DNA from: a virus
IMG/VR virus record: IMGVR_UViG_3300033388_005371
Span: 7,025 to 71,024 of that record
Strand: one strand, 5' to 3'
Length of the DNA stretch: 64,000 nt
A model generated the notes under the pieces. It ran no database searches, was not told the origin of the DNA, and saw nothing but the letters and a program-made list of their open reading frames with translations. Position numbers and translations under genes: made by a program. Positions 2,627 through 44,592 of this stretch are shown one piece after another. The first letter of the stretch is position 1. Each line of letters opens with the position of its first letter.

Positions 2627-3187
2627 ATGTCTATTACGAGAGAAGAAACTGTTAAAAACGCTAAAAAATATTTTGAAAGTGGTGAAAAGTATGGGTTCAT
2701 GACTTTAGCACTACAAGATAGGTTAGGCGCAAAATTTATTGGTGCACCCGCATCAACTAGAACTGATTTATTTAACGCATATGAAGGTGGATTAATTAAA
2801 CATCTATTAACTATTACTAAATACGCCGTAAAATTAAAAGATATAACACCTAACGGTGATAAAATCGATATGAAATCTTTAATAAAAGTGTGTTGTCTAC
2901 ATCAAATTGGTAAAACAAACCTTTATGTTCCTAATGATTCAAAATGGCACAATGATAGAGGTATGATGTATGAGTTTAACGATTCATTGGTATCTATGCA
3001 AGTTGGTGAACGTTCTGCACACATGGCTATGTGTTGTGGTGTTGAATTATCTGAAGATGAATTTCAAGCAATTGTTAATCATGATAAAACCGATGATGAT
3101 AAACAAGCTAAGTGGCATTCAAATACACTTGCAGTTATCTTAAGGCAAGCTAATGAGCTTGCAATAATGGAAGAAAAAGGTAAGTGA
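2627..3187 (+). CDS. HD-superfamily (YhaM-like) protein with HQ in place of HD
   Basis: APAS...NAYEGGLIKH...LHQIGK...AIVNHD...LRQANELA follows the HD-hydrolase layout. Confidence 0.6.
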   Translation: MSITREETVKNAKKYFESGEKYGFMTLALQDRLGAKFIGAPASTRTDLFNAYEGGLIKHLLTITKYAVKLKDITPNGDKIDMKSLIKVCCLHQIGKTNLYVPNDSKWHNDRGMMYEFNDSLVSMQVGERSAHMAMCCGVELSEDEFQAIVNHDKTDDDKQAKWHSNTLAVILRQANELAIMEEKGK

Positions 3188-39388: not shown

Positions 39389-41890
39389 ATGAAGAGGGAT
39401 ATAACACCTAAAGTTAAATTAATCATGAAAAATGCCTTTGCTGAAGCAAAGGCTTTTGACGATACCAAACTTAGGCCAGAACACATCATGATAGCTATAT
39501 TAAATCATGATAATAATAAATGTGTTAGTATTTTAAGAGATATGAATGTTGATTTATTAAATTTATACGATAAAATAAGTGAACATTTAAAAGGTGTTGA
39601 TATAACACCTAGAATTACAATGACAAAAAGAAAATTACCACCTAGTGATGTCACAGCTGAAATTTTTAAAACTGTCGATTTAGTGTGCGATGAGTTGGGT
39701 CACTCATCTATCGACACCAGACACGTTATGTTAGCGATTTTAGAAAACGACACACCAACGACCAACATACTAAATAATATAGGTATTAATTACAAAAATT
39801 ATAAAAAAGAAATTATGAATGAAAATGAAAATATAAAAGGTACGTTCGATGAGTTTGAAGATGATATAAACGACACACCTAAAAAGTCTAATAACAAAAA
39901 AAAGAAAAAGGTTAATAGTAAAACCCCAGTACTAGATAACTTTTGTAGAGATGTATCTAAATCTGCTGAGGACGGTTTAATTGACCCAGTAGTTGGTAGA
40001 AAGTCAGAAATACAAAGGGTTTCCACCATCCTTTCTAGGAGAAAAAAAAATAACCCAGTATTGATTGGTGAACCAGGTGTTGGTAAAACATCTATAGTTG
40101 AGGGTTTAGCCTCATTAATTAAAGATAAAAAAGCACCTAGGGTTTTATTAAAAAAAAGAGTCTTATCATTAGATTTACCATCAATAGTTGCAGGAACAAA
40201 GTATCGTGGGCAATTTGAAGAAAGAATGAAAGCTATATTAGAAGAACTTAGAGCTAACTCAGATGTTATTTTATTTATTGATGAGTTACACACAATGGTT
40301 GGTGCTGGTAATGCTAGTGGGTCACTAGACGCATCCAACATACTTAAACCAGCATTAGCCAGAGGTGAAATACAAGTGATTGGTGCAACCACATTGGATG
40401 AATATAGGGAAAATATTGAAAAAGATGGTGCACTTAAAAGGAGATTTCAAGAAGTATTAGTTGAAGAACCCACTAATGAGGAAACTAAAGAAATACTTAT
40501 CAATATTAAAGATAAATATGAGGAACACCACAAGGTAAGATACACTAATGAATCGATTGAAGAATGTGTGAAGATGGCTGATAGATATATTTCAGATAGG
40601 GCCATGCCAGATAAAGCAATAGATATACTTGATGAAGCTGGTGCAATTACTAACGTAAACATTGATGTCCCAGAAAATATTAAAAAACTTGAAGCTCAAA
40701 GAGAACAGATTGAAGAACAAAAAATACTTGTTGTTTCAAAACAACAATATGAGAAAGCAGCGAAACTTAGGGATAGTGAGGTGAAAATTGAGGAATCACT
40801 TGAAAAAGCTAAGAAACAATGGATTGATACACTAGATAAAGAACCCACACTAATTACTACTGATTTAATTTCAGAAGTTGTATCCAACATGACTGGTATC
40901 CCACTTAACAAAGTATCTACTGAAGACACTAAACATTTAGCAAATATGATTGAAGATTTAACTGGTACGGTTATCGGTCAAGACGATGCTGTTGAAAAGG
41001 TTAGTAAAGCAGTCAAAAGGAGTAGACTTGGCATTAGAAAAGGTGGGAAACCTATTGGTTCATTTATATTTCTAGGACCAACTGGTGTAGGAAAGACATA
41101 CCTTGCCAAACTATTATCAGAATACGTATTCGGTGATAAAGAATCAATGGTTAGAATTGACATGTCAGAATACATGGAAAAATTCTCAGTATCTAGATTG
41201 ATAGGTGCACCTCCAGGGTATGTGGGTTATGAAGAAGGTGGTAAATTAACGGAAGCAATTCGTAGAAAACCTTACTCAGTAGTACTTTTTGATGAAATTG
41301 AGAAGGCACACCCAGACGTGTTTAACTTATTATTACAATTATTAGATGAAGGCCAATTAACTGATTCATTGGGTCGTAAAATTGACTTCAAAAACACGAT
41401 GATTATTATGACATCAAATGTTGGTGTTAAAGAAATGAATAGTTTTGGTTCAGCTGTCGGATTCTCAACTGGTGACACCTTAGCTAAGGAAGAAAAAAGG
41501 TCCCACACTATTCTAGAAAAAGCACTTAAGAAAAAATTTCCACCAGAATTTCTTAACCGTTTAGATGATACAATAATTTTCAACTCATTAAGTGAAAAAG
41601 ATATTCAACAAATTATTGAACTTGAGATGACTGATGTTGAAGCTAGAATGTTTGAACTTGGTTACAAAGTTAAGTTGGATAAAAAAGGTATGGAATATAT
41701 AGCCAAACAAGGTTATGAACCAGAATTTGGGGCTAGACCATTAAGTAGAGCGATTCAAAGGTATGTTGAAGACCCAATAGCTGACGAAGTAATTAAGGGA
41801 AATATTAAAGAGGGGGATACAATCAAAATAACTTACAGTAAAGCTAAAGATAATATGGTTATTAAAGTAACCAACCCCAATAAAAATTAA
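39389..41890 (+). CDS. clpC: ClpC-like Hsp100 AAA+ ATPase
   Basis: Clp N-domain, GEPGVGKT, FIDELH, UVR-like QQYEKAAKLRD, GPTGVGKT, RIDMSEYME, VGF loop, GARPL. Confidence 0.92.
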   Translation: MKRDITPKVKLIMKNAFAEAKAFDDTKLRPEHIMIAILNHDNNKCVSILRDMNVDLLNLYDKISEHLKGVDITPRITMTKRKLPPSDVTAEIFKTVDLVCDELGHSSIDTRHVMLAILENDTPTTNILNNIGINYKNYKKEIMNENENIKGTFDEFEDDINDTPKKSNNKKKKKVNSKTPVLDNFCRDVSKSAEDGLIDPVVGRKSEIQRVSTILSRRKKNNPVLIGEPGVGKTSIVEGLASLIKDKKAPRVLLKKRVLSLDLPSIVAGTKYRGQFEERMKAILEELRANSDVILFIDELHTMVGAGNASGSLDASNILKPALARGEIQVIGATTLDEYRENIEKDGALKRRFQEVLVEEPTNEETKEILINIKDKYEEHHKVRYTNESIEECVKMADRYISDRAMPDKAIDILDEAGAITNVNIDVPENIKKLEAQREQIEEQKILVVSKQQYEKAAKLRDSEVKIEESLEKAKKQWIDTLDKEPTLITTDLISEVVSNMTGIPLNKVSTEDTKHLANMIEDLTGTVIGQDDAVEKVSKAVKRSRLGIRKGGKPIGSFIFLGPTGVGKTYLAKLLSEYVFGDKESMVRIDMSEYMEKFSVSRLIGAPPGYVGYEEGGKLTEAIRRKPYSVVLFDEIEKAHPDVFNLLLQLLDEGQLTDSLGRKIDFKNTMIIMTSNVGVKEMNSFGSAVGFSTGDTLAKEEKRSHTILEKALKKKFPPEFLNRLDDTIIFNSLSEKDIQQIIELEMTDVEARMFELGYKVKLDKKGMEYIAKQGYEPEFGARPLSRAIQRYVEDPIADEVIKGNIKEGDTIKITYSKAKDNMVIKVTNPNKN

Positions 41891-41970: not shown

Positions 41971-42681
41971 ATGATTAAAAGTATTTTAAAATCAAAGTAT
42001 GGTGAGTATTTAGAATCCATAGATATCTATGAGAATAAAACTAGTTTAATTCTTTCTAGAATCATTATTAAAGATAAGTTTAAAGGTGAAGGTATTGGTA
42101 GTAAACTAATGAGTGACTTAATCGATTACGCCGAAAGTAATGACCAAATAATTGCACTAACCCCATCATCTGACTTTGGTGGTAACAAAAATAGGTTAGT
42201 TCAGTTTTACAAGAGATTCGGATTCAAACACAACAAAGGGGTTCATAAAAGTTATGAATTTACTCACACAATGATAAGATACCCCAGTTTAAGTGAAAAT
42301 ATGGAGACAATTAAGGAAACGAAACAAAAACAATTAATTAGAAAATTAATTAGGGAAAACATTAATTTAAATGTTACTGATGAAACACCAGATACAATAA
42401 CATACGACATTTATTATAAAGAAAGACCAGCTGGTTCAATTACTACAGGTCCAGCACCAGAATCATTGGGTGAATATACTGAAGAAATAGTGAGTTTATA
42501 TTTAGAAGATGAGTATACCAGCATCAATGTGGCAAATCAAGCTGTAAAAGCATTATGGAACGCTCATAAGGACATCAATAGGTTCGTTATAAACATTCCA
42601 TATACCAGTCATTTATTTTGGGAGAAACTAGGTTTCCAAAGGCTAAATGATTCCTTTCACATGTTAATGAGGGGCCACTAA
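41971..42681 (+). CDS. Tandem GNAT-fold acetyltransferase
   Basis: KGEGIGSKLM...LVQFYKRFGF, then a second degenerate GNAT ending FWEKLGF. Confidence 0.75.
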   Translation: MIKSILKSKYGEYLESIDIYENKTSLILSRIIIKDKFKGEGIGSKLMSDLIDYAESNDQIIALTPSSDFGGNKNRLVQFYKRFGFKHNKGVHKSYEFTHTMIRYPSLSENMETIKETKQKQLIRKLIRENINLNVTDETPDTITYDIYYKERPAGSITTGPAPESLGEYTEEIVSLYLEDEYTSINVANQAVKALWNAHKDINRFVINIPYTSHLFWEKLGFQRLNDSFHMLMRGH

Positions 42682-43501: not shown

Positions 43502-43927
43502 TCACTTTTCAAAATTGTTACCAATATATTCATAACTGAAACAAACTCGTTTGTTATCACCATAATGATTTTTAAAGACATTTAAATGATTTATATCAGT
43601 CCTTAATTTCCTATTCTTACTAGTTGCTTTCCATAATGGTGAGTGTTGCATATAGTAACCCATTCTTGGGTGAGCACTTTTAGAAAAAAATCGTTTTCCA
43701 TCGTCTAAATAAATTTGTGCAATTGCATCTATGAATTTAACACCAATACCTAACCCTTGATAATCTGGAAGCACAACAACACGATGTCCACGCCAAGCAT
43801 TTTTTAAATAACCACTAGGCATTGCAATTGTTGCCAGAAATCCCACAACATTACTACCCCATGTGGCCACATAACACCTAGTTGGCCCGTGTAAGTCCCC
43901 CCTTAAATAGTGATGGTCTTTAAACAT
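43502..43927 (-). CDS. Mom-like GNAT domain (C-terminal half of the frameshifted ABC-GNAT)
   Basis: FKDHHYL, RVVVLPDYQGLGIG, HP; the frame is open upstream to the U9 run (RPEINIEI...W). Confidence 0.8.
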   Translation of the reverse strand: MFKDHHYLRGDLHGPTRCYVATWGSNVVGFLATIAMPSGYLKNAWRGHRVVVLPDYQGLGIGVKFIDAIAQIYLDDGKRFFSKSAHPRMGYYMQHSPLWKATSKNRKLRTDINHLNVFKNHYGDNKRVCFSYEYIGNNFEK

Positions 43928-44592
43928 GGGCCAGATATTGCGATTTGCTTTATGTATTTCGATATTGATTTCTGGTCGGACAAAAAAAAACCATCATAGA
44001 CTTCTCCACTATCAGTATTAATCACCCAATCTGGTTCCAACCAGTCTAAAACATCTTCATGGCAGGTGACAATCACCACATTTTTAATATTGTTCTTTTT
44101 AATATACTTGGATAATGACACTGAGGCTGCTTTAGCTACGTTCCTATCCACTACCGATGTAAATTCATCTATGACTGCCCCATCTTTTATTTTTCTAGCT
44201 AAATCAGCCCTAAATTTCTCACCATTAGATAACACATGGTATGGTTTATACCAATTGGGTACCGTATTTAATCCAACAGCACTTAATTTATTAATCCCAT
44301 CATCTGGGTCATCGAAATGTGATATGATTGATTTATTTGGGTCCCATGTTGGATAAATTTCTTGACCAAATTCTTGCATAAGGGTTGTCTTACCAGAACC
44401 AGAAGACCCAACAATAACGCCTACACTAAAATTTTTAGGTAATTTTTTAGGTTTAAGCCAAGGATAGTACTTAGAAGTCCCATCAAATATACAATCGAAT
44501 GCTTTTTCAGAAGCTTCAATATATTTATCCTTATTTACCGAAGATGTTATAGGTGTTTTATTCTTAATTAATTTTTCGATTAATCTATCCAT
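43903..44592 (-). CDS. Soluble ABC-type ATPase (N-terminal half)
   Basis: GSSGSGKT, LSNGEKFRADLA signature, IDEFTSVVDR, VTCH. Confidence 0.85.
   Translation of the reverse strand: MDRLIEKLIKNKTPITSSVNKDKYIEASEKAFDCIFDGTSKYYPWLKPKKLPKNFSVGVIVGSSGSGKTTLMQEFGQEIYPTWDPNKSIISHFDDPDDGINKLSAVGLNTVPNWYKPYHVLSNGEKFRADLARKIKDGAVIDEFTSVVDRNVAKAASVSLSKYIKKNNIKNVVIVTCHEDVLDWLEPDWVINTDSGEVYDGFFLSDQKSISKYIKQIAISGPCLKTITI

Follow-up and report, generated by a model that had tools for sequence, protein, structure and literature searches.

A conserved nine-thymine run points to programmed recoding of an ABC-ATPase/GNAT acyltransferase gene in a giant phage

Introduction

An ABC-type ATPase and a GNAT acyltransferase domain are encoded in two overlapping reading frames on the minus strand of a phage genome fragment, and a run of nine thymines lies at the place where one domain would have to pass into the other. 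Do these frames specify two separate proteins, are they the remains of a gene damaged by mutation or misassembly, or do they form a single gene whose halves are joined by a programmed change of frame; and, in the last case, is it the RNA polymerase or the ribosome that slips? The fragment is a 71-kb IMG/VR record from a metagenome assembly with a CheckV completeness of 20%, and the 64,000-nucleotide stretch of it that we analysed is called the window below. Relatives of the locus are found on contigs of 353-368 kb, which indicates that the source is a giant phage. An initial annotation, made from the sequence alone, had suggested that a -1 event on the T run joins the two open reading frames, by ribosomal frameshifting, polymerase slippage or phase variation, and that the acyltransferase is Mom-like. 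The family of ABC-GNAT proteins was reportedly first described in 2013, by Iyer et al. in NAR.

Results

All features of the locus lie on the minus strand. ORF1, in the zero frame, extends from an ATG at 44592 to a TAA at 43905-43903 (43903-44592) and encodes an ABC-type ATPase of 229 aa. The T9 run (43990-43982; U9 in the mRNA) is located inside this ORF in the context ...GAA GTC TAT GAT GGT TTT TTT TTG TCC GAC..., and the slip site GGT TTT TTT TTG includes the heptamer U_UUU_UUU; the minus-strand sequence bears out the initial reading of GAT GGT TTT TTT TTG at these positions. The -1 frame is closed by a TGA two codons ahead of the run (43999-43997), opens at a TGG at 43996, where its translation reads W FFF VRPEINIEIHKANRNIWPMFKDHHYL..., and continues through a linker and a GNAT acyltransferase domain to a stop at 43504-43502 (43502-43996). 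Because the -1 frame is shut by this TGA, the frame change must fall between 43996 and 43903, a zone that is bounded on its other side by the ORF1 stop. The first start codon in the -1 frame is the ATG at 43927, with no ATG, GTG or TTG earlier in that frame; counted from this ATG the downstream ORF comprises 141 aa (43927-43502). In ORF1 the ATPase domain reaches to about residue 203, and the last 26 residues form an out-of-frame tail, whose TAA falls inside the HHYL codons of the other frame. The whole recoded gene would span 43502-44592 and is predicted to yield the 229-aa ATPase when no slip occurs and an ATPase-GNAT fusion after a -1 slip or the addition of one U. Counting up to G201-F-F, adding one F and then 159 codons, the fusion has 363 aa, in agreement with the total of about 363 aa first estimated for a -1 entry into the GNAT ORF. 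A -1 ribosomal shift and a ten-U mRNA give the same junction, G-F-F-F-V, and the predicted junction peptide of the fusion is …DGFFFVRPEINIEIHK.

Homopolymers of this kind are frequent in the AT-rich window: 38 runs of the T9 type were counted on both strands with overlapping matches, compared to 18.6 expected from dinucleotide shuffles, none of which reached 38. Some stretches of at least nine T's or A's are located inside ORFs, for example at 40042-40050 within an 833-aa ClpB-like ORF (39389-41890). A lone T9 is thus unremarkable in the window; its placement exactly at the domain joint together with its conservation exceeds chance. Neighbouring genes in the window encode an SLT transglycosylase, another GNAT and an RNase H-like protein. 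The second GNAT gene, two genes away on the opposite strand (41971-42681, plus strand; 236 aa), is unrelated to the one studied here and has a long C-terminal extension (Acetyltransf_10, E 1.8e-10).

The two frames correspond to consecutive parts of one known protein family. A single PHROG profile, phrog_11143 (357 positions), covers both halves: ORF1 matches positions 5-195 (E 3.7e-62) and the -1 frame matches positions 200-353 (E 2e-36). The proposal that the two ORFs are halves of one ABC-ATPase/GNAT protein is thereby supported; their connection through a -1 event on U9 is supported by the conservation described below. Pfam assigns the -1 frame to Acetyltransf_7 (31.4 bits) and Acetyltransf_1 (30.1 bits), both over the cut-off; for ORF1, ABC and P-loop models match below threshold only, with ABC_tran at 21.7 bits versus a cut-off of 25. 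NCBIfam likewise returned only sub-threshold ABC and GNAT models, and the PADLOC library of defence systems only matches at the level of the P-loop. By eye, ORF1 contains GSSGSGKT, LSNGE, VIDEF and CH, which we take to be the Walker A motif, the ABC signature, the Walker B motif and the H-loop, respectively. In the GNAT half H27, Y28, L29, Q78 and G79 are invariant among 63 sequences; H27 to L29 belong to the HHYL motif, and Q78 and G79 to a conserved Q-G-x-G.

That ABC-GNAT fusions exist, as the initial annotation stated, is confirmed not only by the PHROG profile but also by single genes in cultured phages. A tblastn search against cultured phages matched both halves in about 60 records, and the single-gene form occurs in Aeromonas phage PX29, Burkholderia phage phiE255 and in phages of Gordonia, Vibrio, Nonlabens and Porphyromonas. 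A search that started from an in-frame relative retrieved more than 3142 fused proteins, and near homologues in the protein database read GFFFVRP across the joint. Close DNA matches in cultured phages were absent except for a 93-nt stretch in Lactococcus phage P335. In the AlphaFold model of a natural in-frame relative (P0002; pLDDT 92.8), the FFF closes the ATPase domain and a short linker follows; the Foldseek matches of this model include ABC nucleotide-binding domains (MalK and Wzt, for example) as well as small GNATs. The homologue in Tenacibaculum phage pT24 (LC168164) has its joint in frame but carries a TGA inside the GNAT domain (…WNGVPV*INVISPLP…; positions 3136-3138 of locus L002). 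The pT24 record annotates two 'ABC transporter' genes, and the TGA could represent a nonsense mutation, readthrough or a sequencing error.

The initial annotation pointed to conservation of the split in homologues as a check, and we find the split to be widespread. A scan of viral contigs with ORF1 as query returned 80 loci of 49-84% identity, in 65 of which the GNAT half lies in the -1 frame; in the remaining 15 it is in frame. When the window is added, the 81 rows comprise 62 with T9 and a -1 break, one with T8C and a -1 break (L022), three with GGA AAT TTT A and a -1 break (L065, L069 and L070), three with T10 in frame (L060, L066 and L067), and 12 that are in frame without a run. These reduce to 66 distinct sequences: 51 T9, one T8C, two A_AAT_TTT, two in-frame T10 and 10 in-frame without a run. 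Of the 52 distinct sequences that combine a T run with a -1 break, 51 have the run intact. A maximum-likelihood tree was calculated for 62 rows, leaving out the truncated L069, L076, L080 and L082. A single clade of 54 rows (SH-aLRT 97) unites every frameshifted row with the two T10 rows, which are separate tips nested inside it, and stands apart from the eight in-frame rows.

Run length was also surveyed with a sequence pattern open to 7 to 11 T's. Since the 15 bases that follow the T's are fixed in this pattern, the survey reaches only the part of the clade that shares them. Among the viral matches (n=52) there were 51 T9 and one T10, and 80 of the 82 metagenome matches divide into 76 T9, one T10 and three unrelated genes, so that T9 is found in 127 of 129 related contig matches from the two collections. 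Distinct 350-nt contexts from both (n=103) comprise 98 T9, two T10 and three unrelated chance matches; within the detectable range of 7 to 11, no T7, T8 or T11 was present among the related contexts. In-frame T10 variants were observed in L060, L066/L067 and L189. Together with the GFFFVRP homologues, the two T10 in-frame variants indicate that a fully fused gene is viable, a point against the recoding explanation. Read-level data consist of Logan contigs, each run being represented by at most 0.18 of the sampled words. A Logan contig from run X4, which may be the source sample, spans the T run without a gap (151 nt, depth 8.4). Another, from sponge-metagenome run X2 and 95-99% like the window, stops inside the T run at 43989, which may reflect length heterogeneity or low depth.

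Could the break be an artefact or a sign of decay, that is, a homopolymer miscall of a true T10 or a recent pseudogene? Homopolymers are error-prone on some platforms, and the window derives from a metagenome assembly; however, the same T9 recurs in nearly all related contig matches of two collections and in the X4 contig, and selection has maintained both parts of the gene. Pairwise comparison of 41 full-length T9 sequences gave median dN/dS values of 0.12 for the ATPase part and 0.19 for the GNAT part, at a dS of about 1.3-1.6 that comes close to saturation of synonymous sites. Purifying selection acts on both halves. Upstream of the run, variability peaks at the third codon position of the zero frame, and downstream of it at the third position of the -1 frame; no frame interruptions of the downstream ORF were found across the loci. 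The conserved break and the purifying selection on both halves imply that the arrangement is neither an assembly error nor a dead gene, and we regard such an origin as hardly credible. A switch at the DNA level would be a different matter: T9 would be the OFF state, and replication slippage to T10 would turn the fusion ON in part of the population. Runs of nine do mutate fast, in-frame T10 variants exist, and the X2 contig that ends in the run would be compatible with heterogeneity, or with mere low depth. Nevertheless, T9 is the consensus in 98 of 100 related distinct contexts from many samples, with T10 in the other two and none of T7, T8 or T11; the T10 rows are isolated tips; a long-held OFF state is incompatible with a dN/dS of 0.19 for the GNAT part; and the A_AAT_TTT variants, which cannot phase-vary, hold the same break. 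From the three mechanisms offered in the initial annotation, slippage by polymerase or ribosome therefore fits these observations, whereas phase variation is very unlikely.

It is similarly improbable that the locus encodes two separate proteins, with the GNAT protein beginning at the ATG at 43927 through coupling or re-initiation near the ORF1 stop and without any frame change. Almost all members of the T9 clade keep this ATG, which precedes the ORF1 stop by 24 nt, and GenBank annotations of Firmicutes phages do give two genes. But homology to the in-frame proteins extends over the 21 codons that separate the run from the ATG, the tblastn alignments begin at residue 1 or 2 past the run in 80 of 80 loci, the frame contains no earlier start codon, and the Firmicutes homologues lack a Met at that position. 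Moreover, in the AlphaFold model of the window's -1 frame translation (pLDDT 86.4) these 21 codons make up the first beta-strand of the GNAT fold (strand 1, residues 10-15; the Met is residue 22), and a product starting at 43927 would lack this strand. We conclude that programmed recoding probably exists at the run and fuses the ATPase to the GNAT domain, and from these sequence comparisons we put the probability of this reading at about 0.9.

Both slippage mechanisms find recognizable features in the window. The heptamer GG-U_UUU_UUU-UG of a programmed -1 frameshift is present in the zero frame within the frame overlap, and so is the feature of transcriptional slippage, a conserved homopolymer of about nine A or T. 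A stimulatory structure 5-9 nt downstream is present in L065, L069 and L022 and is missing from the window. We folded the 69-nt segment downstream of each slip site and expressed its stability as a z-score. The three strongest hairpins belong to the three sequences with shorter sites (two A_AAT_TTT and one T8C), with free energies of -25.5, -19.2 and -19.8 kcal/mol and z-scores of -6.6, -4.8 and -4.3, and they begin about 4-6 nt past the slip site (L065, L069/L070, L022). In contrast, the 51 T9 sequences have a median z-score of +0.2, only one of them (L007) falling below -3; this difference between shorter and longer sites is based on just two or three independent lineages. The segment in the window contains no hairpin (-4.2 kcal/mol, z +0.6 to +0.8), and RNAalifold detected no shared downstream structure among 54 sequences (-0.8 kcal/mol, zero compensatory pairs). 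The strong hairpin of L007 (3612-3680; -15.9 kcal/mol, 11-bp stem), the sole one among the 51 T9 sequences, may represent an intermediate between the two modes. A conserved Shine-Dalgarno-like GGAG/GGTG 13 nt ahead of the run was considered and rejected as a signal; it encodes a Gly-Glu that is found family-wide.

A short heptamer followed by a hairpin is the classic ribosomal signal. A nine-base run without a hairpin is the classic substrate for slippage by RNA polymerase, and bacterial RNA polymerase slips efficiently on runs of nine A or T, as exploited by Thermus dnaX (PMC5009743). That the relatives with shorter sites have a hairpin and the T9 sequences and the window do not favours polymerase slippage for the window, and we consider the chances that recoding here is mainly due to the polymerase to be about even. 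A purely ribosomal mechanism, in which two Phe-tRNAs would slip in tandem by -1 on U_UUU_UUU with no stimulatory hairpin and the two extra T's would serve as context or in Phe/Leu coding, is a somewhat weaker but serious competitor. It can point to the perfect X_XXY_YYZ heptamer in the zero frame within the run and to the nearest relatives without T9 (L065 and L069/L070 with A_AAT_TTT, L022 with T8C), which keep the same -1 break and clearly use ribosomal-type signals, so that the same machinery could act on U_UUU_UUU. L007, moreover, combines T9 with a hairpin, and Firmicutes phages appear to use A_AAA_AAG, A_AAG_GGC and U_UUU-type sites at the same joint. What speaks against an exclusively ribosomal shift is the length of the run: seven T's suffice for the heptamer, yet nine are kept in 98 of 100 related distinct contexts. 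The ninth T is synonymous for Phe, and TTC makes up 19% of the Phe codons elsewhere in these genes (TTT 663/817, or 0.81). Furthermore, the hairpin that accompanies all three shorter sites is missing in 50 of the 51 T9 sequences.

Breaks at this joint also occur in other phages. A scan with the ATPase of Streptococcus phage Javan141, combined with the loci of cultured Firmicutes phages, gave a -1 break at the joint in 22 of 22 rows. The sequence at the joint is CTG GGG GAG in Thomasclavelia phage TR-TP1, CAG GTT TTT CAA in Streptococcus phages Javan141 and MismyG and in Lactococcus phage P335, ACA AAG GGC in Oenococcus phage Vinitor-27 and GCA AAA AAG in Enterococcus phage 9184, each with a -1 break; which bases are slippery in these Firmicutes phages is our reading of their sequences. 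An IMG/VR contig whose ATPase is about 40% identical to that of Javan141 (L108) has a T9 at the joint and a -1 arrangement, which suggests an independent origin. In Javan420 (L088, about 1629-1662) and its IMG/VR copy (L092) there is a second frame break in an A-rich stretch of the GNAT half that may be due to decay or an assembly error.

The suggestion that the GNAT half is Mom-like was not substantiated. Pfam Mom (PF25680) did not match it at E<=1, with Mu Mom as positive control scoring 2.1e-75; in hhalign, Mu Mom scored 1.4% and an alignment of 30 Mom members 4.7%; and no Mom model was among the NCBIfam matches at E<=0.1. Foldseek matches of the GNAT-only model, with ranks up to 50 listed, included IAA acetyltransferase, RimI, SpeG, PaiA and similar enzymes; no Mom entry was among the matches listed, and the Mom crystal structure possibly lies outside the searched set. 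By profile comparison, the GNAT half is not a member of the Mom family. The part of the suggestion that concerned an HY motif holds in so far as both proteins have a short H-Y motif after the first helix, a likeness that stays at the level of the motif.

Discussion

The locus is best described as one gene with two predicted products. Standard decoding would give a soluble ABC-type ATPase of 229 aa, and a one-base shift at the nine-T run would give the 363-aa fusion of ATPase and GNAT acyltransferase. In the window the main route would be slippage of the RNA polymerase on T9, which adds one U to some of the transcripts, with a possible contribution from ribosomal -1 tandem slippage on U_UUU_UUU. 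The short and the long product would share the ABC dimer interface and may be needed in a set ratio. The fusion may acylate a base of a nucleic acid, as has been predicted for the family: Iyer et al. 2021 (PMC7824862, section 3.4.7) discuss the pairing of GNAT and ABC ATPase and predict an acyl modification of a DNA base, and they keep this pairing apart from Mom and cite Tenacibaculum phage pT24 for it. The gene of small phages lies between a ParB/Srx-like gene and a terminase gene, which precede and follow it, respectively. A search for ParB_N in the 71-kb record, itself a fragment, had no match.

The recurrence of the break at one joint allows for a more tentative interpretation, which we consider less likely than not. 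The ABC-GNAT family may need a set ratio of the ATPase alone to the ATPase-acyltransferase, a need that AT-rich phages would have met at least five separate times at the same joint with interchangeable devices: T9 in the giant phages and independently in L108, A_AAT_TTT plus hairpin, GUUUUUC in Streptococcus and Lactococcus phages, A_AAG_GGC in Oenococcus, A_AAA_AAG in Enterococcus and G5 in Thomasclavelia phages. One clade would have swapped a ribosomal for a polymerase signal. A possible reason for a set ratio is an asymmetric ABC dimer with a single acyltransferase arm that modifies phage DNA around packaging.

Recognition of the recoding corrects the annotation of many phage genomes, in which gene callers split the gene into an 'ABC transporter' and a 'hypothetical protein' or 'acetyltransferase'. 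It also points to a possible stoichiometric requirement in a very widespread phage enzyme that is a predicted DNA modifier and is represented in culture by Lactococcus, Streptococcus, Gordonia and Aeromonas phages. Close relatives, which are well sampled, change frame at this joint either on nine identical bases with no hairpin or on a short heptamer followed by one, and so constitute a natural experiment on how polymerase and ribosomal slippage replace each other. The family is already in print as a predicted DNA-base acylase; among the main texts searched, none deals with its recoding. The GeneTack paper does treat clusters of ABC transporters, which its text ascribes to translational coupling of transporter genes.

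Several known systems resemble the gene in part. The published phrog_11143 family has the same two domains in the same order, and pT24 is among our tblastn matches; in its treatment in PMC7824862, as far as the sections on this pairing go, recoding is not mentioned, whereas the window and a large clade of giant phages hold the domains in different frames. Phage Mu Mom (PF25680) is a GNAT-fold enzyme that glycylates DNA adenine using Gly-tRNA (PMC13219725). It shares with the GNAT half the superfamily fold, the phage origin, a nucleic-acid base as proposed target and the short H-Y motif after the first helix; however, there is no profile similarity, and Mom comes without an ABC ATPase. In mxiE of Shigella and related type III secretion genes, transcriptional slippage extends the product (PMC5009743). 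The likeness is that polymerase slippage on a T or A run fuses two overlapping frames into a longer protein; the difference is that mxiE is a chromosomal or plasmid regulator without the logic of a domain joint. We know of no alternation with ribosomal signals among the relatives of mxiE. In E. coli dnaX, tau and gamma result from a ribosomal -1 shift at A_AAA_AAG. The dnaX of Thermus thermophilus instead relies on transcriptional slippage on a nine-base run (PMC5009743). The protein families are unrelated, and in E. coli the slip leads to the shorter product, whereas in the window it would lead to the longer one. Nevertheless, dnaX too is a single gene in which slippage at a set position yields two products with the ATPase part in common, and its lineages reach one outcome either by a heptamer with a hairpin or by a nine-base homopolymer.
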